This document shows, piece by piece, positions 24,883 to 53,816 of a stretch of 64,000 nucleotides of DNA. The stretch lies in the sequence record NC_106597.1; one strand, 5' to 3'. The position numbers and the translations under genes are program-made. The first letter of the stretch is position 1; the number at the start of each line of letters is the position of its first letter. The DNA comes from Escherichia phage BB1. The notes under the pieces were generated by a model. That model saw only the letters and a program-made list of their open reading frames with translations. It ran no database searches and was not told where the DNA came from.

Positions 24883-26096
24883 TCTTTATCTCCCTCGGTG
24901 GAACCTTGAGGTCTACCACCTTCTTGACCAGATACGCCTGTTGCAGAACCAGCAACGTTAGCAGGAATACGAATCTTATTCATCTGCTCATCATCTAAAG
25001 GTTCAAGGTTCAGCTCTAAACGAGCTTCGTTACCAGTTATAATACCATTATTAACCAATGAGGTTAAATGTTTAGCCTCAGATTCTTTATCTGGTGTTAA
25101 TGCAGCTACTTCCTTAGTATTAGGAGTAATCTTATAACCAAAAAAGAAAGTAAGAGAACTAGTCAGCTTGTTCAGCATAGGGATGATAGTCATATAGTAG
25201 AACAATTCGATGTTTGGTCGAATGTTCGCATTATTACCACCATCAAGCAGTACTTGCGGAACACCAAAGGCTAGACAGATAGATTTATTAAATCCTTCAA
25301 TGTCTTCCTTAAAGTCTAGATCTTTAAAAGAGGATATTTGGGAGTACGGTTTAGCTTTCATACCACCATCTAGAATCAGGACAGAGGACTGACCAGTACT
25401 AGGATTATAATCTAGTTGTAATTCTTCTTGTTTACGCTCACGCAATTTCTTGTTCAGGATTTCATCCGTCTCAAGAATAAGACCAATCACGGTTCCGTTA
25501 TCGAGGAATTTCTCTTTAAAGTTAAGCATCTTGGAACGCTTCTCAAGAGAATCAATAACAGTAGCAACACGAGATTGTCCAGAAATTTGAGAGTTTGTGC
25601 CACACACGTAACTGTTATCCTTTATAAAGATAATCTCATCTACGCGATAGTCTATCTGATTATTAAATATAAATTTTTTGATAAACTTATTGGCATCTGC
25701 CTCTACTTGCATTAGTGCAGCAGGGACATGATAAAGTGCTGTGCCATCCCAATAGATGTATGCACAACCTTCAAAAAGTAGGTCAGTGACTACAAGTCTA
25801 CGGAATGTGCTTATATCCATGAATGGATTAGGTCGTACATTTAAGAGAGTGTCTAGAGTCTTTGTCTTGATGCCATTGGCATACGTGACAATATTATATT
25901 TATCTCCGACAGTATAAGAACACTCCGCCGCACTATCTATAACCATATTAGCAGTTCTATTGAGAATCTCAATTTTACTGTAGGCTTGTCCAGTGGTAAA
26001 AGGCTTACGGTTAGTGCGATGACTAACTGGTTCCATGTCTCTTATAATACGTTGACCCGGATTTAGCTTTTCAGTAATCCAGCTTTTAAAACCCAT
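24879..26096 (-). CDS. portal protein (pb7-like)
   Basis: 405 aa; position between terminase and protease genes; overlapping stop/start with the decoration gene. Confidence 0.75.
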   Translation of the reverse strand: MGFKSWITEKLNPGQRIIRDMEPVSHRTNRKPFTTGQAYSKIEILNRTANMVIDSAAECSYTVGDKYNIVTYANGIKTKTLDTLLNVRPNPFMDISTFRRLVVTDLLFEGCAYIYWDGTALYHVPAALMQVEADANKFIKKFIFNNQIDYRVDEIIFIKDNSYVCGTNSQISGQSRVATVIDSLEKRSKMLNFKEKFLDNGTVIGLILETDEILNKKLRERKQEELQLDYNPSTGQSSVLILDGGMKAKPYSQISSFKDLDFKEDIEGFNKSICLAFGVPQVLLDGGNNANIRPNIELFYYMTIIPMLNKLTSSLTFFFGYKITPNTKEVAALTPDKESEAKHLTSLVNNGIITGNEARLELNLEPLDDEQMNKIRIPANVAGSATGVSGQEGGRPQGSTEGDKE

Positions 26097-26533
26097 TATA
26101 AGAACCTTGCGAATCCTGATTTTGTTTCAGTCTTGACTTGTGTCTTTTCTTGAGGATTCTGTAATTTGTCTTTCTGCTTTTGAACCCACACTTTTTGCTT
26201 ATTAGCAGAAAATAAAGGAGGTTCTTTTGTGTAAACCTTATGTAATAATTGGTGATGGTGTACACAAAGGGTAACAGTGTCTTCTACTAGCTCATGCCTA
26301 TATCGATCATAGAATGCCGTCCTATTTGAAAGGACTGTTTCTTCGTCAGTGAAATCCAATTGGAGTTCTTTAGCAAATTTTTTAACTAGTAGAGACACCG
26401 TATGGTAATGATGAAGCTCTAATTCTTCAGCACAACCGCAGATAGCACATTGAGAGTCTTTTTTATATTGACTTTTTATTCCGTCTCTCATAAGGGATAT
26501 AGCATCGCGTTTATATTTTATATTGCTTGCCAT
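26096..26533 (-). CDS. small Cys/His-rich protein, possible HNH-type nuclease
   Basis: ORF 26096..26620; likely start at 26533 (SD GAGGAG upstream); CAICGC...LHHYH...CVHHH cluster. Confidence 0.35.
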   Translation of the reverse strand: MASNIKYKRDAISLMRDGIKSQYKKDSQCAICGCAEELELHHYHTVSLLVKKFAKELQLDFTDEETVLSNRTAFYDRYRHELVEDTVTLCVHHHQLLHKVYTKEPPLFSANKQKVWVQKQKDKLQNPQEKTQVKTETKSGFARFL

Positions 26534-26647
26534 AGTGTTCTCCTCAACTGTATGAATATAGTATACATAATCGTATCGAATTTGTAAAGGGGATTTTAAA
26601 ATGCAGGAATGGGATACCAACTGAGTAGTATCCCATCCTATATTTAT

Positions 26648-27964
26648 TTATTTACCACGGGAAATAGAGTAAATTCCATAGCGCAGCGCATCACAAAGGT
26701 GAGAGTTAGCATCATGACGTGGTTTTTCACGTGATAATTTCTCTTCACCCTCTTGGAAATCCCACTTGTAGTTCTGCAATGCATGGATTAATGAGGAACA
26801 TGAAGCATCTACAATAATCTTACCCTGCTGGAATAGCGCTTGCAAGCATGCTAGACCGTCTAGGACAGATTTTTTAGCTGGAGCTGATGCAATTTCATGT
26901 TCATAAGCTAAGTCCTGACGGAACTGAGCTGCGGCAGAGTCAACAAAAACACGATCAACTTTATAACGATCTATACAGTGCTGAATATACGCAGCATGCT
27001 GAGCTGTAGTTTTCTCCGCCTGCTGGTACTCTTCTAATACATAGTAAGTATCTGTATCATAGTGATATTTAATAGTAAGAACTGCTGTAGGGTCACGATA
27101 ACCAACGTCAATGCCAAGCAACGTTTCGAATGCCTCATCATCTTTAAAGAAGTGACGCATACCTTTGAGGTCTTTAACATGATCGATAGCATTAAAGGTA
27201 TCAAAGATCTGACCTTCGAATACAGAGAAGTCAGCCTCGTATTCCTGGCGGAAGTAGTTTTTACTAACTGTACGGCGTGCTTCCTCAATATCATTCAAGT
27301 CAGCACGCGGGTTATCACGATATGTACCATGAATAGATACCCAGTTAGGCAACGTATCATCAAATCCGTAGGCGTAAAACTCTTTAAACCAGTTACCTCC
27401 ACGAGGGGTGGAAATAAATAGAGCCTTAGAATTAGGTTTATCTAGAGTAGGACGCAGCTGAACCCTGAAGGCATCACCTCCCACATCGGAAATTGCCGCC
27501 TCGTCAAAAATGATAAAATCATATGAACGTCCAACTGCGGAGTCAGCCTGAGCCGCAGAAGCTAGTTTAAATAGAGAACCATTAGCTAACTCAATCTCTT
27601 TATCTTTAGCGTTCTCACGTTCGGTTTGTAGGCCATACTTCTTAATGAGACCACGAATCTGAGACCATCCGATATTGGCCAGTGAGTAGTTAGGGGCAAC
27701 TACTAGCACCTTCACATTAGGTTCCAGCAATTTTAGGAACCCAAGAGTATATGCTATAAAGGATTTACCTACACGGCGTGACACACACGCCGTTACAAAA
27801 CGATGTCTAGGATCTTCTAGAGCATTGATAATTGCTATTTGAGGACCATTAGGTGTAATACCTTCTTGCGCTAGTATTCCCGAAACAGGCAGACGAAAGA
27901 AACGTTTGTCTATTCCGAAATCAATAACATCTACTGTGTTAACGTAGGGTCTTGATACTTCCAT
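26648..27964 (-). CDS. terminase large subunit
   Basis: 438 aa; Walker A-like RRVGKS, ATPase then C-terminal nuclease-type acidic residues. Confidence 0.85.
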   Translation of the reverse strand: MEVSRPYVNTVDVIDFGIDKRFFRLPVSGILAQEGITPNGPQIAIINALEDPRHRFVTACVSRRVGKSFIAYTLGFLKLLEPNVKVLVVAPNYSLANIGWSQIRGLIKKYGLQTERENAKDKEIELANGSLFKLASAAQADSAVGRSYDFIIFDEAAISDVGGDAFRVQLRPTLDKPNSKALFISTPRGGNWFKEFYAYGFDDTLPNWVSIHGTYRDNPRADLNDIEEARRTVSKNYFRQEYEADFSVFEGQIFDTFNAIDHVKDLKGMRHFFKDDEAFETLLGIDVGYRDPTAVLTIKYHYDTDTYYVLEEYQQAEKTTAQHAAYIQHCIDRYKVDRVFVDSAAAQFRQDLAYEHEIASAPAKKSVLDGLACLQALFQQGKIIVDASCSSLIHALQNYKWDFQEGEEKLSREKPRHDANSHLCDALRYGIYSISRGK

Positions 27965-28446
27965 TACTTCTTACCTCCAGTAGCTAGGGAAGTAATTAAG
28001 TCCATGTAGTTTTGATCCCCGGCTCCAGCAATAATATTATTCTGGATATTGGTCTGACTAGCAGGAGCTCGGACGGCAGCTTTAGCTTTTTCTAGCTCCA
28101 CCATCATTTTCATCTCTTCCATCTTCATTTTATGTGCCTTCCATAGAATATCCATAATATCCTGGTCAGAACCCATGCCAGTTTCTTCCAGTTCCTCCAG
28201 CTTACGTTTAATAACTTCATCTAGAACACCGAACAAACGATCTCTGTTACGGAAACCACTTTCCATAAAAATATCGTTTAAATAGTTCTTAACTTCACTA
28301 CGATTCATAATATCTCGGAAAGCAATTTCGGACATTCCAAGACTACGTGCGGCAGAAGGCACATCGCTACCACACTGTAAATAAGCTTCAATTACATCCA
28401 TCCCTTCAGGGGACATAAGATCTGGTACTAATACATCATTTGCCAT
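27964..28446 (-). CDS. terminase small subunit, putative
   Basis: 160 aa with predicted HTH ([16 protein letters not shown]); directly upstream of and overlapping the TerL start. Confidence 0.5.
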
Positions 28447-31341: not shown

Positions 31342-31579
31342 TATTGTAATTGCTTTTATTATCGGGATACTCGCTGGAGTTTTCGGGACGACTGCGGCAA
31401 TCAATAAGCATCGGGAATATATTGCGGGAGTGACGCGGGAGATTGCGGAAAGGGAGCGGAAGTTTGACGAGAAACGTGCGGAGTTTGAGCGGAAGTGGTC
31501 GGATGGATCTCGGGCGTCGCGGAAGAGATTCCGTGAGTTCAGACCAGAACACAGGTTTGATGACCCTTCTATGCGCTAA
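31334..31579 (+). CDS. small membrane protein (81 aa)
   Basis: N-terminal TM helix then Arg/Glu-rich tail; start overlaps upstream gene. Confidence 0.4.
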   Translation: MFSIVIAFIIGILAGVFGTTAAINKHREYIAGVTREIAERERKFDEKRAEFERKWSDGSRASRKRFREFRPEHRFDDPSMR

Positions 31580-31744
31580 TTTGGAAATCTCGAAATTTCA
31601 TAAGATTACACATGGAGGTGTGCCCAGTGGGTCGGGGGAGAATACTTAGTCTGCTAACCGCCACCCCCCGTTACTATTAGCAGGGTAATTGTTTCATCCT
31701 GCAACCATTTTAATCGCAGGATGAAATTATTTCAACTTTAATTA

Positions 31745-32479
31745 TTACGCAACTTTTAATTTCTCAATATATTGTTGCGGGCTGCAACTATATTCTGCGC
31801 GTTCTTCCTCGGTCATACCTTCCCAGCATAGTTTTAAACGGTCAGCTAGGAATTGATAATCATTATCATCGTCGAGCGATTCATCAATAAAGGTTTCACC
31901 TATTAATGTTACACCTATTGATAGAATATCATTAACGGCTTGCGCGTCCAGCGTTTTAAATCCGTATGATGCTGCCGCCGATAGCACACCTTTATGATCA
32001 TCAATCATTGTAAAATCAGCGTTCGGATATAACTGTTTAAATAATTCAAAATAATAAGATTTATATACTGCGTCTTTGCTGTGGTATATTTCGCTAACTT
32101 TATCAGCTTTAAAATATTTATGCAGTGTGTCGCGGGAAAATACGCGGATATTGCTATTTCCTCGACCTCGCAAGCCTTGTTTGCGCAAGAAATAATAGTC
32201 CGACTTACTCATCAATCGAGCGGTGCAAATAATGTTTAAAGTATTTGCATCATTCATGCACTGGCGCATATATTCAACCAATGGCAATAAAGTATCTTGC
32301 ATTATTAAATGATGTTTGCAGGCTTCATTTTTATATTTATTTAAATCTAAATTGCCCTCATTATCAAAGCAAGGCGCTACACGATGGAAAGAATTAACGA
32401 TAGTGCCGTCTAAATCCCAAATCATGACGCGGGAAATATGCGGGAAATTACGGAAAGAATTAATAATAGATTTATTCAT
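31745..32479 (-). CDS. dmp: HAD-family 5'-deoxyribonucleotidase (Dmp-like)
   Basis: 244 aa; HAD motif I WDLDGTIV near N-terminus; length matches T5 dmp. Confidence 0.6.
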   Translation of the reverse strand: MNKSIINSFRNFPHISRVMIWDLDGTIVNSFHRVAPCFDNEGNLDLNKYKNEACKHHLIMQDTLLPLVEYMRQCMNDANTLNIICTARLMSKSDYYFLRKQGLRGRGNSNIRVFSRDTLHKYFKADKVSEIYHSKDAVYKSYYFELFKQLYPNADFTMIDDHKGVLSAAASYGFKTLDAQAVNDILSIGVTLIGETFIDESLDDDNDYQFLADRLKLCWEGMTEEERAEYSCSPQQYIEKLKVA

Positions 32480-32558
32480 TTGTTACGTTCTCCATTAAAG
32501 GGATTTAGTTATTTCAGCATTACCCGCTATTTATAAGCGGGTAATAATAAATTAACTA

Positions 32559-32954
32559 TTAAAGACCATAAGCCAACGCATCGGCAATAAAACTAACATC
32601 CTCACCTGATACGCTGGAACGAATACCAGCACAAGTATATACTTTTGCACTGATCAATTGATCATCAAGGCAAGCGGGGCAAGGCGCGACAACTGCAAAG
32701 GCAAGGCCGGATTTTACGGCGTCGATGATAATCGTTTCTTGCTTCACCGTATCAACATAAACACCTTTTGCTTTAATATGACTGGTTAGTTTGCCCTGCG
32801 TATATGCGAATGTTGTAACCTGTAAAGCGTCATTGAAATCTAATAGATCATCAATAACATGCCCCGCCTCGACGTGGTAACGTTCGCCGTTAGAATAAAC
32901 CAGAACAATTGAGGATTGAGCGCGGTCAAATGGGATGCGATTAGATTTAGCCAT
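32559..32954 (-). CDS. hypothetical protein
   Basis: 131-aa ORF in the pre-early block. Confidence 0.4.
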   Translation of the reverse strand: MAKSNRIPFDRAQSSIVLVYSNGERYHVEAGHVIDDLLDFNDALQVTTFAYTQGKLTSHIKAKGVYVDTVKQETIIIDAVKSGLAFAVVAPCPACLDDQLISAKVYTCAGIRSSVSGEDVSFIADALAYGL

Positions 32955-32990
32955 GTTTATAACTCCAGTTATTTTAATAAGGAATTTAAT

Positions 32991-33281
32991 TTATTTGATA
33001 ATAATCTGCATTTGGTACGGCGTTAATTCACCGTTTACGGGTAAATTATTATCACTCAACCATTCATAAAAAGCGTCATCATCATCAAAAGGAACAACAT
33101 CATTATCACGATAATCGACCGTAATAATACCATCAGTATTAGTTTTAGCGGCTAGGATAGGCCCGAAGCTGTAAACTTTATCGGATTCCATTTCATCCGG
33201 TGAAATGAATGCTTTTTCGTCCAATGTTTTGGGTAGTGTAACTTTCATTTTTTGACTCCTGTAATAGCGGCTATATTTCAA
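32991..33281 (-). CDS. hypothetical protein
   Basis: 96-aa acidic ORF. Confidence 0.4.
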   Translation of the reverse strand: MKYSRYYRSQKMKVTLPKTLDEKAFISPDEMESDKVYSFGPILAAKTNTDGIITVDYRDNDVVPFDDDDAFYEWLSDNNLPVNGELTPYQMQIIIK

Positions 33282-33302
33282 GCCGCTAGGGGAATAATTT
33301 AA

Positions 33303-34967
33303 TTATGCGAAGAATTTACCATTCTTAAAGTCGATCAAAGTACGCTGACCGTTTGCATAGGTAATTAAATGCGTTTGCGTCCAGCTTGACGCGCCAACGT
33401 TGTAACCCATATCCAGACTACCAGCTACTCCAGCGGTATAAACGCCACCGTAAATGCTAGCGGTATGGGTGTGTCCCGTGTTTAGCTTGCCCAATTTCTT
33501 AAACTGTTTAGGATTGCCACGACTGCCGTTAATGCCGTTGTGACCGTGTACACCGCACTCAATGCCTGCAATCTTGAAAGATTGGTCAGTGGTTAGGAAA
33601 ATGGCGTTAAACTCACAACCTGCAACCTTGCGCAGCGCATAATCTAGCACGTTAAAAGTATCATCATGATCACTGATCGCCGCGTAAATTGCAGCATTCA
33701 GGCGGTGATATAGTTCGGCGTTGGCTGGATCGTCTTTGATGTTAGCATTACGATCATCTAACCAGCGGGATAGCGCCAAATCGTGATTAGATTCAACAAT
33801 GATTGTTTGAGAGAAATCACGTTCCATTGATTCCAGCACGCGCCCCGTATCGATAAGATCATCCAGAACTTTATCACGTCCAGCGGCATACTGTTTTGCT
33901 AGGAATACACCGGATGCACGGTTATGATGATTGCGCGATGTAAAATCATGCACGTCATGAATAAACTGATATTTAGGTTTAAGAATATCAAGCAAGCTAT
34001 TTTCGCCAGCCCATGACGCAACGGCACAATCATCATCTAATTTTTCGGCGTGAATATCGCCATATTGCAAGCCTAAAACATGCCCCGACGTTTCATAGCA
34101 TCCAGCAGGAGTAGCGCAAACATTCAGATCATAAAACACCCCGCTTTCATCCATCGTTTCAAGCTGGCGAACAAAAAATTCCCCGTCGTCGTCGAACTCA
34201 ACAATAAGCGCACCGAAGTTATGCAGCGCCTCGGCCTTTTGTCCTGCTTTCTGCTGAATGTAGTTTTTGAGCGTTGCCGTTCCGGTTGAATACATACGGC
34301 GCACTACTTCACCTTTTAAAGCTGGCACGCTTTCAGCGGTAATTTTAGCGTGACCAATTGCCAGCCCTTCAATATTTAAAGCCGTTGCAGTTTCTGCAAA
34401 TCCTGAAAGCGGATAGTCTGCGGTAGGCAAAACATTAATTTCAGCCATGAAAGCAAAACGGCGGTTATTTAAAAACACGTTTTTGCTGCAAATATATTTA
34501 TCAAATGCGGGATCGTATTTGATACCGTCTGCACCTTCTCCATTCTGGAAGCCGTTTTTATTATAAATATACTTAGAAACAAGCAAATCAGCACCGATAT
34601 ATTCAGCGAATTTTTCCAGACTTGCTAAAAAGTTTTTATGTGGGAAAGTATTATTCTGAATCGACGTAATAATAAAGCGTTTACCCTGTTTTACTTCCCA
34701 TTGCTCAACCGTACTAGAAACAATCCCCGCCGCTTCTGGGCGCTCATCGTTTTTAATGGCTTTTGCTACTTTTGCCGCTTTCGGTTTAGCTGGTTTATTT
34801 GCTTCCAGCCAGTCGCAGATAGCGGTTGAATGCTTCGTTGTATCGTAGACCGCTTTTGATATATCGTCGCAGACTTCCAGTTTAGTAGCGCGCAGACGTT
34901 TACCATAGAAATTAAAGTCAGCGGCCATTTTCAGGATAACGGTTTGTTTTTCTGCGGAAATAATCAT
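33303..34967 (-). CDS. A1: pre-early protein A1-like (calcineurin-type metallophosphoesterase)
   Basis: 554 aa; metallophosphoesterase motifs GDIHAE, GHNG, GHTH; size close to T5 A1. Confidence 0.6.
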   Translation of the reverse strand: MIISAEKQTVILKMAADFNFYGKRLRATKLEVCDDISKAVYDTTKHSTAICDWLEANKPAKPKAAKVAKAIKNDERPEAAGIVSSTVEQWEVKQGKRFIITSIQNNTFPHKNFLASLEKFAEYIGADLLVSKYIYNKNGFQNGEGADGIKYDPAFDKYICSKNVFLNNRRFAFMAEINVLPTADYPLSGFAETATALNIEGLAIGHAKITAESVPALKGEVVRRMYSTGTATLKNYIQQKAGQKAEALHNFGALIVEFDDDGEFFVRQLETMDESGVFYDLNVCATPAGCYETSGHVLGLQYGDIHAEKLDDDCAVASWAGENSLLDILKPKYQFIHDVHDFTSRNHHNRASGVFLAKQYAAGRDKVLDDLIDTGRVLESMERDFSQTIIVESNHDLALSRWLDDRNANIKDDPANAELYHRLNAAIYAAISDHDDTFNVLDYALRKVAGCEFNAIFLTTDQSFKIAGIECGVHGHNGINGSRGNPKQFKKLGKLNTGHTHTASIYGGVYTAGVAGSLDMGYNVGASSWTQTHLITYANGQRTLIDFKNGKFFA

Positions 34968-35057
34968 AGTAATAAAACTCCATTAAAGGGATTAGATTAA
35001 TAACGGCAATATTGCCAAATATAACGCCTCAAATAATAGGCGTTATAATTTGCAACA

Positions 35058-35255
35058 TTAATTTAAAGGCACTAGGCTAGAACTAACACCACAAGCAACG
35101 GCAGCGATAAAACAAAGCAAGCCCAAACGTTTTGCTAACTTAGATTTACGTTTAAAATAATATGAATCTAAATCATTTTGAAAATAAGCAAATAATAATG
35201 AGGCCGCCATAATAAACAAGCCTAGAATTAATGATTCAGTAGGAAAGAAAATCAT
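35058..35255 (-). CDS. small membrane protein
   Basis: 65 aa, two hydrophobic helices. Confidence 0.3.
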   Translation of the reverse strand: MIFFPTESLILGLFIMAASLLFAYFQNDLDSYYFKRKSKLAKRLGLLCFIAAVACGVSSSLVPLN

Positions 35256-35346
35256 TTTTTAAAACTCCTGATTTAAGGGAAGAAAATAACTATCGCTAAA
35301 CAGTTATATTATTGCCCCCTCACTAAAAGGGGGCAAGGTATAACTA

Positions 35347-35754
35347 TTATTCGCCTGCGGCTTGTTTTACTTCATCGGCAACGCCTAACAGTTGCGCTAC
35401 TGCGTCCAGCGTTTCAAGTTTTGCACTTTCCAGACTTGCCAGATCGTCGGCGTCTTTGATAATGCCGGAATCAATAGCATGTTTAGCGATAACGCGCACA
35501 TAGTGAGCTTTACGCACAGAGCTACCGCCACCAACTTTACGCGGCTTATCGCTTTTTTGATAGGCTTTTGCACTGGTCAATTTTGAGCGAACGGATACAG
35601 GGGAAGCCGCGCCAACTGCTTTTGCAATCTCTTTTAAACCGTCGCTATTTGCGAAATCTAAACCGTTTTCATTAATTAACTGCTGATACATGGAAACAGC
35701 TTTCTGAGTGTTTTCTTCATTCCATGCGAATTTTGCGGTTTTAACGTTAGTCAT
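35347..35754 (-). CDS. pre-early DNA-binding protein, possibly A2-like
   Basis: 135 aa, basic central region; position downstream of the repeat region and upstream of the A1-like gene. Confidence 0.35.
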   Translation of the reverse strand: MTNVKTAKFAWNEENTQKAVSMYQQLINENGLDFANSDGLKEIAKAVGAASPVSVRSKLTSAKAYQKSDKPRKVGGGSSVRKAHYVRVIAKHAIDSGIIKDADDLASLESAKLETLDAVAQLLGVADEVKQAAGE

Positions 35755-35852
35755 GATATAAACTCCTATTAGTTTAATTTAAGGGATTAGATTAACTTAA
35801 TGTTAATCGTTATATCCCCCTGAAATAAGGGGGATATAAAGTTAACACTAAA

Positions 35853-36104
35853 TTACAGAACAGCTTCCCATTTTTCGTTACGTTGAACAACCTTTACAAC
35901 GTCGCCGGATTTAACGCGAACGTTAAAAACAGGTTTGCCGTTGTTACTACGTTCATTTTCAACATATACCGCGTCGATTGTATCAAACGGCATAAGCGCC
36001 GCGCCTTTAATACGTTCGGCCTTTCCGGTTAATTCATCCGTTTTAGTAACGAAAGGAATAAAAACGGATTGACCAATTTTTGGCGCGGTAATAACGTTTT
36101 GCAT
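35853..36104 (-). CDS. hypothetical protein
   Basis: 83-aa ORF. Confidence 0.4.
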   Translation of the reverse strand: MQNVITAPKIGQSVFIPFVTKTDELTGKAERIKGAALMPFDTIDAVYVENERSNNGKPVFNVRVKSGDVVKVVQRNEKWEAVL

Positions 36105-36332
36105 AATATAAACTCCGAGTTATTTGGTGGATTGTTCCGCATTACCTGCTAGAAAGTAGCAGGTAATAAGTAACAATCCGCTCGCCAGTATAATCGATTT
36201 AAAGAACTCCACGTAGGCCGCTATATCCCAGTTAGGGGGCGGGATGCATTATGGTAAGCACCGACCGTCAAATTTTATCAAGTTATCGCTCTTATCGAAC
36301 TGGGTACATCTTAAAACCTATCGGCTAGGTTG

Positions 36333-36536
36333 TCAAGCGGTTTTTTGCAGTTTTTTATGATTTTCTTTCAAGTCAATCATAATATTTCGCCAGATCATTT
36401 CTAAACCTTGCTGGCGACCTTTCTTGTACTGCGTGAATCTATATTTTACTGATCTTTGTGCTACTGTCAACAAGTTTTTTGTTTTGCTATCTAGTGCCTT
36501 AATAGGCTTGCCAGTGATCAAAAGCGTTTGTTTCAT
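36333..36536 (-). CDS. hypothetical basic protein
   Basis: 67 aa, Lys-rich; first ORF downstream of the DnaA-box region. Confidence 0.25.
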   Translation of the reverse strand: MKQTLLITGKPIKALDSKTKNLLTVAQRSVKYRFTQYKKGRQQGLEMIWRNIMIDLKENHKKLQKTA

Positions 36537-36945
36537 ATCGTCGATTCCTTATAATGAATAAGTTTACCGCCGATAGGCTTTAAGATGTACCCAATTTTTA
36601 AAGAGCGTGGCGGTAAACTTCCCGCCGTGTAGTTCGTCATTGCCGCCCTACGAAATAAATAATAGGGGATTCCCGAAAATGGCGCAACCTTATTTTTGTA
36701 AAGAAACGTAAAGACACGATCCACCGGACGGCGTGCGGCGACGGCCTAAAATTAAAAGAAACGGGCGCGCGAATACCACAAAACATAGCAAATAGGCAAG
36801 TAATTTTTTCATTTATATTTACTTTGCCCTACTTGACAAAACCTAAAAAGCTCGTGACAGCGATAAACGGCTTATCCCTTTATGATGAGATGGCTAAAAA
36901 CTTCATCGCGTTCTAGGGCGTTTTAGGCGCATTCTAGCCTTGTTG

Positions 36946-37020
36946 ATAACTTATCCCCAGAAGCAAAAATGAAATTTTCCTAGTTATCCACTTGACTTTT
37001 ATTTTCCAGTGGATAACTAC
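36946..37020. repeat. DnaA-box-like sites with a 12-bp inverted repeat
   Basis: TTATCCCCA (36951-36959); TAGTTATCCACT (36981-36992) and its reverse complement AGTGGATAACTA (37008-37019) around a TTGACTTTTATTTTCC spacer. Confidence 0.6.
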
Positions 37021-37139
37021 TTATTTTATAAAATAAATTAATTGACTTTTATCTGTTAGTATGCATCGGAAAGATAGCAGACTAATAATTGCTAGGATGA
37101 TAATCATGCTGGTGGATTGTAACGGCTTAAATTATTAGC

Positions 37140-37262
37140 AGACTATTAATCACGGAAAATCTCATTAGCCAACTAACTATTTCATGATATATAATATACT
37201 TATAAATTAATGAGAAATAATAATTATAATAAATAATAACTACAGTAAATAATAACTATAAG
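37140..37262. repeat. AT-rich tract with reiterated AATAATAACTA-type units
   Basis: About 120 bp of low-complexity A+T sequence between the DnaA-box groups. Confidence 0.5.
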
Positions 37263-37311
37263 AAACTATCGGCCTAAGTGAGAACCACTATCATTTAAGT
37301 TATTCACAACG

Positions 37312-37408
37312 TTATCCACAGCACAAAATAATTTGACACGATAGGCGGCGATATAAGGACTTTTGCACAGACTTATCCACAGGTTATTCCACTGTATAAA
37401 TATACAAG
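37312..37408. promoter_or_regulatory. two consensus DnaA boxes plus palindrome (left arm of a large imperfect inverted repeat)
   Basis: TTATCCACA at 37312-37320 and 37373-37381, followed by CTGTATAAATATACA. Confidence 0.6.
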
Positions 37409-37674
37409 GTAAAAAGGTAGTGTTAACAACTGCAATCAATTTTGAGCGGCCTAAATCGCATTCTAACGAGCTAAACGCTGCGGAGTAATATTAAAGTAAA
37501 GCCTTAATGCGGCGGCCTGGTGGCTTCACCGTGTTTTGCTCTTTATTACACCGCTGCGCGGTTAGCATAAAATTAGACGCTAGGCAAGGAAAATAAAAAG
37601 GTAAAATAATATTTGCCTATGCTAGAAAATTACCTTTATCATTCACTCACCGATTAACGAGGGAGGCCGAACAA

Positions 37675-38670
37675 ATGAGGCTGTATAAACCAGATAACGC
37701 AACCGTCTTAAAAGGTGCATTGCGCAACCTGCTGGAGGGTAGCAAGTCAACCAGCATTAAACATTTTATTAACAAGGCTGAAACTATTCATCAAAACTTT
37801 TTTGATGATTATGACGGTTATGATATAGATAGTTTTCTACCACTATATAAGCAAGGGGCAACGCTTGTTTTATATAACCGTGATTGCCATATCTTTACAG
37901 GCAGGGGAGCGGGGCCGGATGCCGATTTTATTATTGCGCAGGGCAATAATATTGTTGCGTATCATAGCAATTCAGGCCGTCAATCATTTAATATAAATGG
38001 TTTTGAGCTTATTGGACTTGATCTGATAAATGGACTTTCTAGTATTGAGGGATTTTTAAATGTTATCTGGAAGTATTTACCCGCTGGATGGCATAAGCCG
38101 GATAATGACGGATCTCAATATACCGCTATAATGGCTTTTGATGGCGACGGTAATTTTTTGTTACCACGGGAGCTATACCCGTATATTTATGATGGGGATA
38201 TTGAAAGCGCTGGTTTTTCTTTCTGGAAAGATGAAGATCAGATTATTGACAGTATAGAAAACCATGCTGTAAATTCTAACACTCAAACTACTGAAAACAA
38301 AGGAAAAAATACCATGACTAAGATTGCTAACATCGTTGCCGCTAATAAATCCGCTGTTGTAAATGCTGCAAAACTGGAGGCGGGTAAAATTGCATTAACT
38401 CAAATCACGAAAGTAGCGGCTAAAAAAGCGCCGTTTATGATTAAAGGTTATATTGATACGCCGATTGGTCGTGTAGTGATCGCTAACCTGCTAAGTGTAG
38501 CGGTTGACCAGTACGCACCGAGTAACCAAAAGGCGAAAGCGGTAGCAGGTGCAGCTATGGAGGCGGCAATGTTGGAAATGGTGCAAAGTTTTAACATCGC
38601 TGAAATGATTGATGAAATGGTAAAAGGTATTGATATTTCTACTTTTACCACTAGCACCGAAAGCGAGTAA
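37675..38670 (+). CDS. hypothetical protein (331 aa)
   Basis: SD GAGGGAGG upstream; first gene of the plus-strand island. Confidence 0.5.
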   Translation: MRLYKPDNATVLKGALRNLLEGSKSTSIKHFINKAETIHQNFFDDYDGYDIDSFLPLYKQGATLVLYNRDCHIFTGRGAGPDADFIIAQGNNIVAYHSNSGRQSFNINGFELIGLDLINGLSSIEGFLNVIWKYLPAGWHKPDNDGSQYTAIMAFDGDGNFLLPRELYPYIYDGDIESAGFSFWKDEDQIIDSIENHAVNSNTQTTENKGKNTMTKIANIVAANKSAVVNAAKLEAGKIALTQITKVAAKKAPFMIKGYIDTPIGRVVIANLLSVAVDQYAPSNQKAKAVAGAAMEAAMLEMVQSFNIAEMIDEMVKGIDISTFTTSTESE

Positions 38671-38735
38671 TAATAACTAGCGGGGATTATTTCCCCGCTT
38701 TACTATTCCCTTGTTAACTAATAGGAGGCTAATAA

Positions 38736-39230
38736 ATGGCTGAGGAAAAATACGGCTTCTCGCTAGGGGAAGTGAGCACGGCTAAACACGATATGATCAT
38801 TTTAGTCGATTGTCATACAGGTTATTGCGGAGAAGGTTGGACGGAGGAACATTTTGTTCCTGCTGGTACGGATCTGGACGCTTTCGCTCATGAAATGGCT
38901 GTTGATAATGCTTCTCGTTTTGGTAGCGATGGCTATGAAGACGAAGAAACTGGCGAATGGTATGAAAATGAAAACGTATATGCAAGCCTTTATCATTATC
39001 AATTAAGTAAATCCGGCACATATGTAAACGGCGGCGATCCTATTAATTCCGTCATGAAATTAATTATTAAACATGGTGGCGTCGAGATAATTGATAACAA
39101 AGCGGTAATATATGCAAACCGATTAAAACAGCTTATTTATATTCCTGATAGTACCCGATGGGAGGAATATGCTGTTTTGCATGACGAATTAAAACGATGT
39201 TTCAATATTGAAGCCTTACAAGTAGTCTAA
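38736..39230 (+). CDS. hypothetical acidic protein (164 aa)
   Basis: SD TAGGAGG upstream. Confidence 0.5.
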   Translation: MAEEKYGFSLGEVSTAKHDMIILVDCHTGYCGEGWTEEHFVPAGTDLDAFAHEMAVDNASRFGSDGYEDEETGEWYENENVYASLYHYQLSKSGTYVNGGDPINSVMKLIIKHGGVEIIDNKAVIYANRLKQLIYIPDSTRWEEYAVLHDELKRCFNIEALQVV

Positions 39231-39335
39231 TGTAAAGTTTTGTAAAGGTCGCCTTTTATGGTGGCCTTTTTTGTTATAATGCCTTTACACCAAAACGGTG
39301 GATTGAAAATTTTCCCAAAAATTTGGAGGCTTAAA

Positions 39336-39566
39336 ATGGTTGCTTATTCTTCTGCTAGTCATCTGTTTACCGCGCAAGGCTGGGTATCTAATCGTGCTGT
39401 CATCTATGAAATGGTGCAGGAGTTCGGCATTGCTAAAACCTATAATACCATTCAGGAACTATATAACGCCGATAAAATCGATCAGCAAACGGCTGGCTTT
39501 TTGCTGGATACCCTGAAAGCTGAACATTGCACTAAAAAACAAGCCGCTAAAATTGTTTTAATGTAA
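39336..39566 (+). CDS. hypothetical protein (76 aa)
   Basis: ORF 39258..39566; likely start at 39336 preceded by TGGAGG. Confidence 0.4.
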   Translation: MVAYSSASHLFTAQGWVSNRAVIYEMVQEFGIAKTYNTIQELYNADKIDQQTAGFLLDTLKAEHCTKKQAAKIVLM

Positions 39567-39615
39567 TTAATAACGGGGCGATACTTTCGCCCCGATAACT
39601 AGGAGGCTATCACAA

Positions 39616-39765
39616 ATGGTTATTTTTCGATCTATTTTAGCGGGTATCTTGGGCGCTATTTTATCGTTATTTGCGATAGCTTTCGGCGTTCACGCTGTTA
39701 TTATTGGCGCTGGCATTGCCGTATTTTCTTATCTGTTAGGCTGCATGACTAGTAAAGGAGAATAA
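39616..39765 (+). CDS. small membrane protein (49 aa)
   Basis: Below ORF-track threshold; SD AGGAGG 7 nt upstream; one long hydrophobic helix. Confidence 0.35.
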   Translation: MVIFRSILAGILGAILSLFAIAFGVHAVIIGAGIAVFSYLLGCMTSKGE

Positions 39766-39767
39766 AA

Positions 39768-39980
39768 ATGATTCGTAACGTTTCCCTTGCACGTTCGAAA
39801 GGCTTTAAGCTGGTGGATGTAAACACGTTTGAGCGGGAAGATTGTAAAATCGAATATGTAGCACGTAACAAAAATGCCTTTCGTGTTACCGAGAAAAAAT
39901 TCGACAAGCGCGGCAACGTGATAGCTGAAACAGTTAAACATTTTGCCACCTTTTATGCTGCCTTTCGTGGGGTGTTATAA
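39768..39980 (+). CDS. hypothetical protein (70 aa)
   Basis: Starts 2 nt after the previous stop. Confidence 0.4.
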   Translation: MIRNVSLARSKGFKLVDVNTFEREDCKIEYVARNKNAFRVTEKKFDKRGNVIAETVKHFATFYAAFRGVL

Positions 39981-39981
39981 A

Positions 39982-40326
39982 ATGGTTATTTATGAAGGCA
40001 ATCGCTTTGTTGCTAATTGCCGTCCGGCATTATTAGCAAACTATTTAAATCAGCTTTCCCCAGCCTATAAGGGCGTTATTAATATTTATGAGGGCAAGGC
40101 GCATTATAAAATTAATGCGGTCGTTGCCCGTGAACTAGCGTTTCAATTTTTGACTTTTGCATCTTGTGACGTTCAGGTTATGGGGGAAGCATTAATTGCA
40201 GAAAATGAAGAGGATTTTATTAATATTTTCCGTAAGGTATGCACTGAGCGCTTGATAATGAAAGGCGCGTATATTCAATCAACTGCGGAAAGTATTGAAA
40301 CAGCATTTCGAAAGGTGGCGCAATGA
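39982..40326 (+). CDS. hypothetical protein (114 aa)
   Basis: ORF 39943..40326; likely ATG at 39982 adjacent to the previous stop. Confidence 0.4.
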   Translation: MVIYEGNRFVANCRPALLANYLNQLSPAYKGVINIYEGKAHYKINAVVARELAFQFLTFASCDVQVMGEALIAENEEDFINIFRKVCTERLIMKGAYIQSTAESIETAFRKVAQ

Positions 40327-40392
40327 AATTATATATTTTCGTTGGTAATAGTAAGGCCGCTATTGGCAAAAATATATTTACTAGTGGTTATT

Positions 40393-40587
40393 ATGAGCAA
40401 TAAAATTATTGTTACCAAAACCAGTACAATGGTTGATGTTTTTTACGTTCCCGATACGCCGGAAAACCGACAAGCGGTCGAGCGTGGCGAGTATGATAAA
40501 GTGATTTATGATCACGATGGTTATTATCAACATTTGGTGGATTCCTACGGGGAGGAGGAAAAAATCACGCACCGACTACCAGACTAA
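40393..40587 (+). CDS. hypothetical protein (64 aa)
   Basis: ORF 40342..40587; internal ATG at 40393 more plausible. Confidence 0.35.
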   Translation: MSNKIIVTKTSTMVDVFYVPDTPENRQAVERGEYDKVIYDHDGYYQHLVDSYGEEEKITHRLPD

Positions 40588-40844
40588 TAATCACAGGGCA
40601 CAACTACTAGGAAGTGCCCCCCAATTCTCAAATGAGAATGATTCTCATTTGACCGCGCCCGAGATGGTTAGCCTGCTAATGGTTAGGGTGTTACGTGTCG
40701 CCTTGTGTGATCGTTAGCGAGCTAACCAATTTTTAAGCCTCCTCCAATTTTGCCATTGTTTTAGTATCCCCGCCAAAATTAAACGCGTTAGAATGCGATC
40801 TAGGACGTTTTAACGCTATATTAGAACTATTCACTGCGCAGGAA

Positions 40845-40956
40845 TACTGTATAAATATACAGTAGGATAAGCTGTGGATAAGTCTGTTAATAACGCCTCA
40901 AAATGGCTAGGATTCTGTCAAGTCAAATCGTGCTGTTAATAAGTCTGTGGATAACT
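40845..40956. promoter_or_regulatory. two consensus DnaA boxes (reverse orientation) plus 16-bp palindrome (right arm of the inverted repeat)
   Basis: CTGTATAAATATACAG at 40847-40862; TGTGGATAA at 40873-40881 and 40946-40954. Confidence 0.6.
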
Positions 40957-40974
40957 TAAATAACAGTGTTTCTC

Positions 40975-41160
40975 ACTTCCATTCTTAAATGCAAATTATT
41001 ATCATTTGTATTTCACTATCTAACTAATAATCATTTCACTTTTTAAATGAGAATCGTTTCACTTCCTGAATAATTTTCATTTCACTTTTTAAATGCGAAT
41101 GATTCTCATTATCATTCCGCTTTTTAAATGCGAATTATTATCATTATCATTCGCATTCAG
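40975..41160. repeat. AT-rich tandem repeats
   Basis: Three copies of TTTCACTTTTTAAATG(A/C)GAAT-like units and ATTATCATT reiterations. Confidence 0.6.
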
Positions 41161-41182
41161 GCTAGCAGGGCAATTGCCCTGC
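41161..41182. repeat. perfect palindrome CAGGGCAATTGCCCTG
   Basis: 16-bp palindrome centred on AATT, immediately before the direct-repeat array. Confidence 0.5.
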
Positions 41183-41188
41183 GCTTTT

Positions 41189-41788
41189 GTGCAAATCCGA
41201 CATTGCTCCATGGGTGTTACGTGCGGGCGTGTATGTGCGAATCCGACAATTTTTGGTAGTGTGCAAATCCGACCCGAAAAATTTTTATAGTGTGCAAATC
41301 CGACAATGAATTTTCCTAAAAACTCCAGCAATCACGAACTGCGTTCGAATCCTGTGGGGTATGTGCAAATCCGACATGGTTTTTCTAGGATTAAGATGTG
41401 CGAATCCGACAAGATTTTTGTGACTTCGATTGGAGGGTGTGTGATTGTGTGAGTTTGGGGAGAAGTTGAAAGAGTGAGAGAAATTTGGGGGAACTGCGGG
41501 AGGGGTGCATGTTTGGTGCGGAGCACCTGATTTGCGGGGATTTTGTGGAAGAGTTGAGAAGATTTGGGTTAATTTGAGATAAGTGCAGATAAAGTAAAAT
41601 TTTATTAGCTAAATGGGGCAAAATAGCTTGACAAGTGAAAATTTCTGTGGCTCCAAAAACTCAGGCAATCATGGGCCTTCGGCCCGAAATAATGCTGCCG
41701 TTTTCAGGAGATTATATGTTCCTAAAAACTTAGGCAATTGTGCAAATCCGACCAGTTTTTAAACTCTTGTCAGTGTGCAAATCCGACA
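41189..41788. repeat. array of 8 direct copies of a 14-bp motif GTGC(A/G)AATCCGAC(A/C)
   Basis: Copies at 41189, 41235, 41261, 41292, 41363, 41398, 41740, 41775, all same orientation, irregular spacing; non-coding. Confidence 0.7.
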
Positions 41789-42286
41789 GTAATTTCTAGA
41801 AATGTGTTTTGGAAAAATGTCTTCTAGAAATAACCGCCCTCCCAATAACCGCCCTGTATTAACCGCCTATTGCTGGAGTTTCTAGGAATATGAAAACCGC
41901 CTAAGTTGACTAGAGTTTTCCTAGAAACTTAGGAGTCTAGAAGAAAGTGTTGTGCCATCCTAGCAGATGAGCGGCAACAGGTGTATCATCTTGAACACAA
42001 ATATTGCCTTTAAATATTATAAGGTAAATAAAAGTTAATATACCCCCATTTCATGAGAGTTAGTCCCTCTAGGCGCGTGCGATTTGATACATCCTCCTGA
42101 GTCTCGGGGAGGAAGAACAATTGACGAGAACCTGCGAACAGAACCGTCATCAAGTGTTTTCCTACGAGGAATGATGTAAATCTACGGCCTAGAGGTAAAA
42201 ACAAGTTGATGTTTTTAATCTATGAGATTATTATAACACATTATTCTCACGAATGTCAAGCAAATTTCGTTACTTTTAAATTTTCG

Positions 42287-43015
42287 TCATGAGTTTGGAG
42301 TTGGGTAAATTTTTATGCAACCTTGACTTAATAGATATTTTTCTGCCTCTACAGCTTTAATATTGAATATCTCTTTTGCTCCATCGAATTTATAATGATT
42401 AGCAAATTTATTCTCGAAAAATTTATGTGCTTGGTGTTCTATTTTGTAAGCAAGTTCTTTCGATCCTTTCTTGTACTGGTAGATACCAAATACTTCCATA
42501 TCTTCAAAACCCGGCACACGCAATTTATCATACTCTAGATTCTTAAACCTTTGATGTGGCTCTCTAGAAACCCCAATCTTTGTCTTTAATTTCTTCCTAG
42601 ACTGATCTTTATTAGAGAAGATATAGAGATATGTGGGAAATTGAACATCTTCTTCTACTTCCGGTTTCTCGATAGGTGTATTGAGGTTGCTTTCTCTAGC
42701 ACATTGTAAACAACCGTGCCCATCTAGGTGAGATCTAGCAGTTTGCATAAAGTATCCTTTATGCTTATAGCACCATATCTCTACTAACTGATTGGCTGTC
42801 TTATAATTAACTCTTTCATACCCATACTCTTCTTTCTGGACTTTTAAAGCTTTCCTAATAAAGATAAGGTTTAAGGCCTCTTGTTGGAAGTCAGGGTGAA
42901 GTTGCCTAATCTTCGTTATATTAGTAGAGCCATTTGACTTCAAAAAGTTTTTAAGAGGAAACCTCCTGGCTTCCTCGCGTAGCTTTTTATTAATTTCAGC
43001 ACGTAAATCATCCAT
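42287..43015 (-). CDS. T5orf172 / GIY-YIG-like domain protein, putative
   Basis: 242 aa; YLYIFSNK ... KIGVSRE pattern resembling a GIY-YIG-related core, preceded by a Cys/His cluster (HLDGHGCLQCA). Confidence 0.35.
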   Translation of the reverse strand: MDDLRAEINKKLREEARRFPLKNFLKSNGSTNITKIRQLHPDFQQEALNLIFIRKALKVQKEEYGYERVNYKTANQLVEIWCYKHKGYFMQTARSHLDGHGCLQCARESNLNTPIEKPEVEEDVQFPTYLYIFSNKDQSRKKLKTKIGVSREPHQRFKNLEYDKLRVPGFEDMEVFGIYQYKKGSKELAYKIEHQAHKFFENKFANHYKFDGAKEIFNIKAVEAEKYLLSQGCIKIYPTPNS

Positions 43016-43733: not shown

Positions 43734-44344
43734 TAATTACCTCTCTTATCTTCATTAATAGCAGCTCCCAACGCTTCAAGGATAGTATCACTTATACTCC
43801 CAGGTCTAAGATTATTAAAGTGAGTAACATAGAGGGGACTTTTAAAACCTTCAGCATCCGCAGGTGCTACGCTTCGCATATCAGATTCAAAAGCTTCTTG
43901 AGTATGTTTCAACTGTACAGAAGGGCCGTAATCTTCCCCAAACTTATATGACTTCGTACTACTTACCACACCCCCACAAGGAACATTGTGCATATCCGAC
44001 ATTAACCTTTTATCGGAGTTACTCAGCATTGAGATTGTCCCTGACTGCCACGGATCTCTAATAGTTACAGGAGTACTAGGACGGTTAACCTCAGCCTTCA
44101 CTAGTTTGTATCCTGCATCGATCAGTGCATTAATCAGGTTATCAGCCGGGATGCGAGCCGTGCCAAAAATCTTACGAGCATCTTCGAGCTTACCTTCAAG
44201 ATCTTTACATGCTCTAAGGTCAGTGTGTGCAAATGTTAGCTTCATAGATTTGAGTTGTATAGTAGCAGTTAAATCTTTAAAGCTATAATCCCATGTGTTC
44301 AGTTCATGGTCTGGTACTACTTGAATAGGTTGTTGTGTAAACAT
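43733..44344 (-). CDS. hypothetical protein (203 aa)
   Basis: First gene of the three-gene operon; start overlaps the stop of the upstream small gene. Confidence 0.45.
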   Translation of the reverse strand: MFTQQPIQVVPDHELNTWDYSFKDLTATIQLKSMKLTFAHTDLRACKDLEGKLEDARKIFGTARIPADNLINALIDAGYKLVKAEVNRPSTPVTIRDPWQSGTISMLSNSDKRLMSDMHNVPCGGVVSSTKSYKFGEDYGPSVQLKHTQEAFESDMRSVAPADAEGFKSPLYVTHFNNLRPGSISDTILEALGAAINEDKRGN

Positions 44345-53063: not shown

Positions 53064-53816
53064 TTATCCAACTAGTGGTTCTAGCTCTAAGTCACAGAAG
53101 TTATAAACTTCTAGTTTAAGGTTATTGATACCATCGAATTTATTAACTAATTCGTGAGTAATATATTTTGCAGGAATACCACTTTCAGATGGATGATCTG
53201 ATTTAATAGTAAACTTCTGCTCAGCGGGTACTACATTTACTATCAAAGAATCCATATCTAAATGGTTTGTTTCTCTGAGTAGCTCTCCTTCATTGGGGAA
53301 TCTAACATCTGTTATTACGGCGACGTCTGGGTCGTCTTTAGCGATGGATTGCTCCAGAATTATGAGCCAAATGCGTTCATGCACCAGCTGCCTTCCTAGC
53401 TCTGTCCCTACGAGCTGTAACATTTTTCTCGGAGAAATAAATAAACTATAAAGTCCGTCTTCTTTATTCTCTGAGATAAGTTGTTGAGGATTAAGGTATT
53501 TTTCCTCAAAAATAGGCCAAACGTACGAGAAGTCTTCAAACTTATCGATACCGTACTTAAACCACACATCTCTGGCTCGCTCCAATTGAGATTGTGTGAC
53601 CGTAAACCATTGGTCAACCTCTTTCCCCCTGCGCTCTCCTAGAAACTCTGGAGTTACACCGAGGATTACGGATGCAAGTTCATAAACGGGCTTAGCAAAA
53701 CTATAACGACGGGATAAACACGTTGGATACGTGTCATTACACCAATCGATAATTAATTTTGCAACGGTATCTTTTCCTGCACCTGCTTCGCCATGCAGAC
53801 CCACTAGTACACTCAT
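53064..53816 (-). CDS. deoxynucleoside monophosphate kinase
   Basis: 250 aa; P-loop GEAGAGKDT at the N-terminus. Confidence 0.6.
   Translation of the reverse strand: MSVLVGLHGEAGAGKDTVAKLIIDWCNDTYPTCLSRRYSFAKPVYELASVILGVTPEFLGERRGKEVDQWFTVTQSQLERARDVWFKYGIDKFEDFSYVWPIFEEKYLNPQQLISENKEDGLYSLFISPRKMLQLVGTELGRQLVHERIWLIILEQSIAKDDPDVAVITDVRFPNEGELLRETNHLDMDSLIVNVVPAEQKFTIKSDHPSESGIPAKYITHELVNKFDGINNLKLEVYNFCDLELEPLVG

Follow-up and report, generated by a model that had tools for sequence, protein, structure and literature searches.

How the DNA of phage T5 stops entering the cell after 8 % of the genome, how entry restarts and how the 10-kb terminal repeat forms are parts of a question that is about 60 years old and is still being posed in papers from 2026. 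The locus analyzed here, eight same-strand copies of a 14-bp motif in the non-coding DNA of a T5-like phage, bears on that question: what do these copies bind, and which process do they serve? We conclude that the eight copies are probably the DRD repeats of T5 Repeat Region 3, the region of the injection stop signal (iss), and a putative docking array for one sequence-specific DNA-binding protein. The array is an already described feature, and the finding as submitted is a rediscovery. What is added here is comparative: a footprint that extends across genera, a strict orientation throughout the genome, and an array that always brackets a sequence-conserved right terminus. Taken together, these allow terminase, A2, and DnaA to be told apart by concrete predictions. 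Only four or five classes of element within these 1.6 kb survive across genera, and the DRD array is among them, making it a prime target for mutagenesis and binding experiments.

The array and its surroundings

A motif scan of both strands of the window (the whole 64-kb stretch of DNA that was analyzed) returned eight exact matches to GTGCRAATCCGACM, all on the plus strand between 41189 and 41788 (Table 1), exactly the eight co-oriented 14-bp copies that the first-pass annotation had described. When up to two mismatches are allowed, the whole window holds 11 matches, against 0.54 expected and a maximum of 3 in 100 shuffles; the original count was therefore right for the array but missed three further plus-strand copies elsewhere in the window. 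Start-to-start spacings within the array are 46, 26, 31, 71, 35, 342, and 35 bp. The irregularity of this spacing had been recognized, but the range then given (25-70 bp) overlooked a split into two clusters, six copies (cluster A) and two (cluster B), with a 328-bp gap between them. The full DRD site spans about 25 bp, with the core TGTGCRAATCCGAY, a T-run 4-6 nt downstream, and the extended form TATGTGCRAATCCGAY; its best-conserved part is ATCCGA. Every DRD copy lies on the same strand whatever the direction of the gene around it, and this includes the solitary copies in D13, in the T5.019 homologue, and in three early-gene positions of Erwinia phage KEY. The D13 copies lie in frame, encode VQILQ VQIRQ, and are identical in T5; selection on them beyond protein coding was rejected, as the homologue in Klebsiella phage GZ8 is without them. 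The copy in the T5.019 homologue is exact in both T5 and SPC35.

Table 1. Positions of the DRD copies and associated features in the window (a slash within a sequence marks the boundary)
Feature	Position	Strand	Remarks
DRD copy 1	41189-41202	+	GTGCAAATCCGACA; between the two blocks of the nick consensus
DRD copy 2	41235-41248	+	GTGCGAATCCGACA, then T-run
DRD copy 3	41261-41274	+	GTGCAAATCCGACC
DRD copy 4	41292-41305	+	
DRD copy 5	41363-41376	+	
DRD copy 6	41398-41411	+	Last copy within the terminal repeat
DRD copy 7	41740-41753	+	First copy past the terminal-repeat end
DRD copy 8	41775-41788	+	
Two adjacent solitary DRD copies	835-847, 850-862	+	In D13 (SbcC-like, coiled-coil) gene; 1 mismatch and exact, respectively
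Solitary DRD copy	43988-44000	+	1 mismatch; in minus-strand early gene, phrog_5271 = T5.019 homologue
Two pairs of DnaA / DnaA*-type boxes	40873-40954	+	DRD orientation; TGTGGATAA at 40873-40881 and 40946-40954, TGTTAATAA at 40885-40893 and 40934-40942; boxes in each pair 3 bp apart
18-bp perfect palindrome	41165-41182		GCAGGGCAATTGCCCTGC; terminator-like hairpin, overlaps nick-site block
T5 7.9 % major nick-site homologue, bipartite	41177-41228	-	CCCTGCGC (41177-41184), about 30 nt, GTTACGTGCGGG
C-depleted, G-rich tract	41412-41640	+	Many GGG/GGGG runs; GC skew about +0.66
Conserved right end of terminal repeat	41645-41654		CTGTGGCTC/C; boundary between 41653 and 41654; from homology to annotated ends
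Conserved hairpin	41673-41685		GGGCCTTCGGCCC; just past the terminal-repeat boundary
Four AACCGCC(C) repeats	41829-41901	+	Right of array; kept in GZ8, KEY, and the Proteus phage
Inferred terminal repeat	31621-41653		About 10,033 bp; left boundary between 31620 and 31621

The non-coding setting claimed for the array was confirmed: it occupies a 1.57-kb stretch between convergent genes ending at 40717 (plus strand) and 42287 (minus strand), and across 18 relatives no ORF over the array keeps its frame or its length. A1, A2, and dmp homologues are encoded upstream of the array in the window, and the ORFs near it comprise small pre-early proteins of no known function, a T5orf172 endonuclease, and other unknowns. 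On its left side the array is preceded by the AT-rich tandem repeats of the first-pass annotation (~40970-41157; periods 23, 29, and 35; GC 0.23-0.27), within which the T5 FST shear point (about 7.9 %) maps by homology. The palindrome that follows had been given as 16 bp at 41161-41182; it is indeed perfect, but it is 18 bp long and begins at 41165. The gap between the two clusters is mostly filled by a 230-bp C-depleted tract, which lies between copy 6 and the genome terminus.

Several other elements were recorded in the region. Where the window has the C-depleted tract, Proteus phage 1 has purine-rich tandem repeats of 15-18 bp. A 20-bp palindrome, TACTGTATAAATATACAGTA (40845-40864), lies to the left of the first DnaA box and is conserved in GZ8 and KEY. 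One more copy of AACCGCC(C) stands at 31657-31664, just inside the left end of the terminal repeat. A perfect sigma-70 promoter on the minus strand (42259-42230; TTGACA, 18 nt with TG, TATAAT) is aimed leftwards at copies 8 and 7, and its -35 element is conserved in GZ8 and KEY. A T5orf172 / GIY-YIG-like gene of the homing-endonuclease type (42287-43015, minus strand) forms an insertion that parts the iss region from the first conserved early gene; it is missing from T5 at this place, where several relatives carry the annotation 'endonuclease'.

A number of candidate explanations for the array were tried and set aside. One was a hidden gene: in some records a minus-strand ORF of 177 aa is annotated across the array, but neither its frame nor its length is conserved, and the window has it in broken form. 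The motif is T-loop-like (GTTCGAATCC at 41343), but ARAGORN finds no tRNA in the array, and a tRNA or tRNA-derived origin was rejected. No Rfam family matches beyond one sub-threshold chance match. Single-strand folding of the array does not surpass that of shuffles (z = +1.44), and only the palindrome forms a stable hairpin. Promoter-like sites within the array do not exceed expectation, and the sole terminator-like site is the palindrome at the nick.

Kinship with the T5 injection stop signal and conservation across genera

The window is a T5-like phage of the Tequintavirus type, and its array region matches about 450 T5-like phage records, being 86-96 % identical to T5-like phages. Against T5 itself, identity is 86 % over 651 bp, and beneath the match is annotated 'injection stop signal'. 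In the T5 record (AY543070), iss covers 9140-10149, the left terminal repeat ends at 10219, and 9748/9749 is annotated as a 'major DNA single-chain interruption'. The motif starts in T5 at 9753, 9799, 9825, 9856, 9937, 9962, 10306, and 10341, plus 10478 with one mismatch; six copies (9753-9975) stand before position 10219 and three after it. The part of Davison's preprint drawn on here (bioRxiv 10.1101/866236) describes a succession of DRD repeats, nine in number, in T5 Repeat Region 3, alongside palindromes, 66-bp DRE repeats, and DnaA boxes, and presents these elements as conserved among T5-like phages, in that part without an assigned role. Because copy count and position fit, we infer that our motif is the 'DRD' of this literature. 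The window has everything that locates iss, namely a long untranslated stretch, convergent pre-early and early genes, and the right end of the terminal repeat, and where about nine co-oriented copies straddle the left terminal-repeat end in T5, it has 6 + 2 with the T5 spacings. The DRD repeats, Repeat Region 3, and iss of T5 are reportedly covered by Heusterspreute et al. 1987, Wang et al. 2005, and Davison 2015. The first-pass annotation had framed the array without this named family of the injection-stop-signal region, and likewise without two facts of position, the abutment of copy 1 on the 7.9 % nick site and the straddling of the terminal-repeat end.

The two phages are alike in the motif, its orientation, and the order and spacing of its copies, and in both the copies sit at the terminal repeat's right edge, with pre-early genes on one side and early genes on the other. 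They also share the neighboring DnaA boxes, AT-rich repeats, palindrome, and 7.9 % nick. They are unlike in that T5 has nine copies whereas eight are recognizable in the window, the T5 copy at 10478 having no counterpart there, and in the T5orf172-type gene, which only the window has; there is no other difference.

The first-pass annotation had let its reading stand or fall by the conservation of the copies among close relatives, and more than 30 T5-like loci proved to share copy number, order, and spacing. The spacing pattern 46, 26, 31, 71/81, 35/25, ~343, 35, ~137 recurs in about 30 such loci from GenBank and IMG/VR, and the number, order, and spacing of copies are conserved across Tequintavirus and Epseptimavirus, with one additional copy in the Epseptimaviruses. 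In Klebsiella phage GZ8 (Sugarlandvirus; A1 73 % identical) and Erwinia phage KEY (A1 66 %), the spacers have diverged and the spacings differ, while each phage holds eight copies of TGTGC(A/G)(A/T)A(T/A)CCGA(C/T). Only 50 9-mers are common to the non-coding regions of the three genera, against 0.17 expected from shuffles, and these fall in the DnaA-box pairs, one palindrome, the cores of the AT-rich units, all eight DRD copies, the AACCGCCCT repeats, and one promoter -35 element. Proteus phage 1 (Novosibvirus) has degenerate DRD copies only, and no DRD array was found in Vibrio phage Dax, though its DnaA boxes remain. Since the core is kept while the spacers diverge in the Sugarlandvirus and in the Erwinia T5-like phage, the array, as far as comparison of sequences can speak for it, clearly appears to be a conserved, oriented, double-stranded functional cis element. 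The view that these are conserved same-orientation sites rather than slippage repeats thus held up, and the copies are best read as putative protein-recognition sites.

A nick at the border and a terminus in the gap

By homology with T5, the 7.9 % nick would fall between 41184 and 41185 on the minus strand of the window. The four major nicks of T5 share the bipartite pattern CCYGCGC-N26-34-DTTACR, whose second block is (A/G/T)TTAC(A/G) and which is longer than the annotated consensus NPu/GCGCN. This pattern recovers exactly the four T5 major nicks in the 74 kb scanned (AY543070 9742, 22330, 39740, and 78567), and in the window it finds only the three expected homologues (466-507, 41178-41221, and 53628-53670). 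Copy 1 starts 4 bp past the nick-site block CCCTGCGC, and across lineages cluster A starts 2-4 bp past the conserved 7.9 % site, which is the border between first-step-transfer (FST) and second-step-transfer (SST) DNA. A general link between DRD copies and nicks was rejected: no major nick site but the 7.9 % one adjoins a copy, the 64.8 % nick-site homologue (466-472) has the D13 copies 363 bp to its right, and there is no nick in the vicinity of the T5.019 copy.

The right end of the terminal repeat was placed in the window from the annotated ends of T5, SPC35, MM-1, Sw2, SIY1lw, and Klebsiella GZ8. As a single copy of the terminal repeat is present, the window would be a collapsed or permuted assembly. 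In eight lineages, the annotated or contig-end right terminus falls in the gap between the clusters, with the copies split 6+3 in T5, 5+3 in SPC35, 6+2 in MM-1, 7+3 in Sw2, 7+2 in SIY1lw, 4+4 in GZ8, and 6+4 and 5+3 in two IMG/VR lineages (L066/67 and L089/91, respectively). The array is always split in two clusters, and wherever the genome end has been mapped it lies between them. In six of the eight, the terminus lies at the same sequence, ..TTGACA..TGAAAA..CTGTGGCTC/(C)TAAAAA, a right end common to Tequintavirus, Epseptimavirus, and Sugarlandvirus. Cluster B begins about 90-250 bp beyond this sequence-conserved terminus; copy 7 starts 87 bp past the boundary in the window and likewise in T5, SPC35, MM-1, Sw2, and SIY1lw. 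The chee24 and saus176N records put the repeat end about 200 bp further left, which is still between the clusters. In Salmonella phage Seafire (MK050846), the repeat end called by PhageTerm (L129, locus 1241) is the 7.9 % nick site rather than the conserved terminus and is probably a nick artefact; this case suggests that terminus calls made from reads of T5-like phages can be led astray by nicks.

At the left end of the terminal repeat (31560-31621), the conserved block AAATTTCATAAGATTACACATGRAGGTG runs up to the boundary. It holds TGCGC-N28-ATTACACATG, a nick-site-like element just outside the repeat. No DRD copies were found near the left terminus.

Candidate proteins and known systems

The best reading of these comparisons is a multi-site docking array for a polar process at a DNA end, with recognition of the right end by terminase, A1/A2-dependent restart of transfer, and DnaA-like binding as its candidates. 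On this view, a single sequence-specific DNA-binding protein would dock, in several molecules, on the double-stranded DRD copies at the junction, and the docked protein would serve a process that is polar relative to the whole genome. The mechanism that we tentatively favor is a pac/cos-like recognition element for the packaging machinery, with the small terminase as candidate ligand, which would position the right-end cut between the clusters. Both terminase genes lie in the window (TerS, 27964-28446; TerL, 26648-27964), and the small terminase, once loaded on the co-oriented copies, would guide the cutting of the right genome end. The array does contain a site where the genome end is cut, in eight lineages and at a conserved sequence in six. 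The terminus-bracketing architecture suggests a packaging role, which is absent from discussion in the iss/DRD literature examined. Phage DNA follows, as a general rule only, a last-in-first-out order; as the left end of T5 is ejected first, packaging should begin with the right end, cluster A would lie on the side that is packaged, and on this basis we infer right-end-first packaging. With somewhat greater doubt, we propose that the split DRD array and CTGTGGCTC/TAAAAA could be the long-sought pac-like packaging-initiation signal of T5-like phages. If so, the 'injection stop signal' element would be at least partly a DNA-maturation signal, and the reason for its overlap with the first-step-transfer border would be the position at which the terminal repeat has to end. 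The terminase mechanism leaves without explanation why cluster A begins exactly at the nick and FST border, and why single copies in the same orientation occur at distances of 1.7-4 kb and about 69 kb. The left terminus without DRD copies and the records that set the repeat end elsewhere also count against it. A 174-aa gene located between those for the large terminase and the portal (26096-26620, minus strand) weakly matches an HNH endonuclease (phrog_8048, E = 8e-6); it is a candidate for an accessory nuclease that cuts ends or makes nicks, as in HK97-type phages.

We rank an A1/A2-dependent restart of DNA transfer nearly as likely as the terminase mechanism. Here the pre-early protein A2, which binds DNA, would occupy the DRD copies by itself or together with A1, a membrane-associated protein, taking successive co-oriented sites as these reach the cytoplasm after the pause and so restarting or ratcheting second-step transfer. 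This gives concrete form to the A2-like ligand that the first-pass annotation had offered as speculation. In the literature, A2 forms a dimer that binds dsDNA and associates with A1, and second-step transfer requires both proteins. The FST/SST border is where cluster A starts, 4 bp past the 7.9 % nick, and sites become sparser toward the right, with same-orientation solitary copies in early genes of T5, the window, and KEY; this would suit a process running in the direction in which the DNA enters. The first-pass annotation had called A2 a neighbor of the array, but its gene lies 5.4 kb upstream (35347-35754, phrog_1725), and nothing ties A2 specifically to the motif. A structural model of A2 (pLDDT 85) has a small N-terminal helical domain with weak HTH/Myb-like fold matches. 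These are not significant (best E = 0.7), leaving sequence-specific binding by A2 putative, and in the absence of a significant PDB match or a solved homologue, we rejected A2 as a recognizable sequence-specific fold. The copies also lie to the right of the shear point (in T5, about 9618 versus 9753 for the first copy) and should therefore still be outside the cytoplasm at the pause. Moreover, the Vibrio T5-like phages keep A2 where the DRD array is absent, and binding by A2 leaves the bracketing of the genome terminus in every lineage without explanation. Host DnaA is the less probable, indeed unlikely, ligand. Building on Davison's DnaA model, the DRD copies would be low-affinity DnaA-type boxes with a conserved extension that extend the platform of true upstream DnaA boxes, and DnaA, which is partly membrane-bound, would oligomerize over iss and hold the DNA. 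The left half of the motif, TGTGCAAAT, is indeed one mismatch from a DnaA box on this strand (TGTGNAWAA; TTWTNCACA on the other), a match whose chance in a random 14-mer we estimate at about 1 %, and a perfect fit to the box is seen in one copy from GZ8 and one from SPC35 (TGTGCAAAA). In all four genera examined, the true boxes (40873 and 40946 in the window) are oriented like the DRD copies, and DnaA boxes are the most widely conserved element of the region, present even in Vibrio phage Dax. The best-conserved ATCCGA, however, lies outside the 9-bp DnaA box, and the conserved motif reaches 5 bp past it; the frequent G variant, TGTGCGAAT, has two mismatches to the box, where the A variant has one; and spacings of 26-81 bp are unlike those of oriC low-affinity arrays. 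Eight DnaA boxes are listed in the part of Davison's preprint drawn on here (bioRxiv 10.1101/866236), none of them within the DRD repeats.

The layout of the locus, from DnaA boxes through an AT-rich repeat block to a direct-repeat array, is the classical plan of an iteron plasmid origin, and the same part of the preprint notes a resemblance to oriC (bioRxiv 10.1101/866236). It would follow from true iterons that the region is a replication origin whose copies bind an initiator, and the first-pass annotation had used the word. The window does have adjacent DnaA boxes and an AT-rich unwinding region, and it resembles the theta-type iterons of plasmids and phages (P1 oriR, pSC101, F, and lambda ori) in its co-oriented reiterated sites beside them. 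In the strict sense, however, the term fails: iterons are regularly spaced and helically phased, typically at about 22 bp, whereas the spacing here is irregular and unphased and includes an interval of 342 bp; no linked initiator gene is found among the neighboring ORFs; and T5 origins have been mapped elsewhere, near the genome center according to the electron microscopy that Davison cites in the part of the preprint drawn on here (bioRxiv 10.1101/866236). The gene for a putative origin-binding protein in T5 is likewise far off, at 59.5 kb. We regard an iteron origin as very improbable. Less credible still is the notion that the copies have no function of their own as protein sites, being relics of local duplication or part of a secondary-structure or RNA element. 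Some copies do sit within longer repeated units of 24-31 nt, and with the sigma-70 promoter aimed into it the region may be transcribed. The cross-genus footprint, in which the core is conserved while the spacers diverge, largely refutes this idea, and the folding, Rfam, and tRNA results given above also count against it.

Set among known systems, a docking array of this kind can be compared with two groups of elements. Chi and KOPS/SRS are genome-polar short motifs read by DNA-processing motors, and the DRD copies resemble them in a strictly uniform genome-wide orientation that is independent of gene direction. They differ in being far too few and too clustered for a guidance code and in a sequence unrelated to E. 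coli Chi or KOPS. The second group consists of terminase recognition elements: P1 pac with its 4 + 3 hexamers, the R sites of lambda cosB, SPP1 pacL/pacR, and the T7 SRL/SRR arrays beside the terminal repeat. The DRD clusters lie farther from the cut (87-255 bp) than their counterparts in lambda and P1, and only here are the terminase sites putative; the DRD array, unlike these elements, also coincides with an injection-pause border and has solitary copies elsewhere in the genome. What the DRD array shares with P1, lambda, SPP1, and T7 is a set of short reiterated sites, irregularly spaced and accompanied by A/T tracts, that flank a sequence-specific end cut, with the larger cluster, as in lambda cosB, on the side expected to be packaged first.
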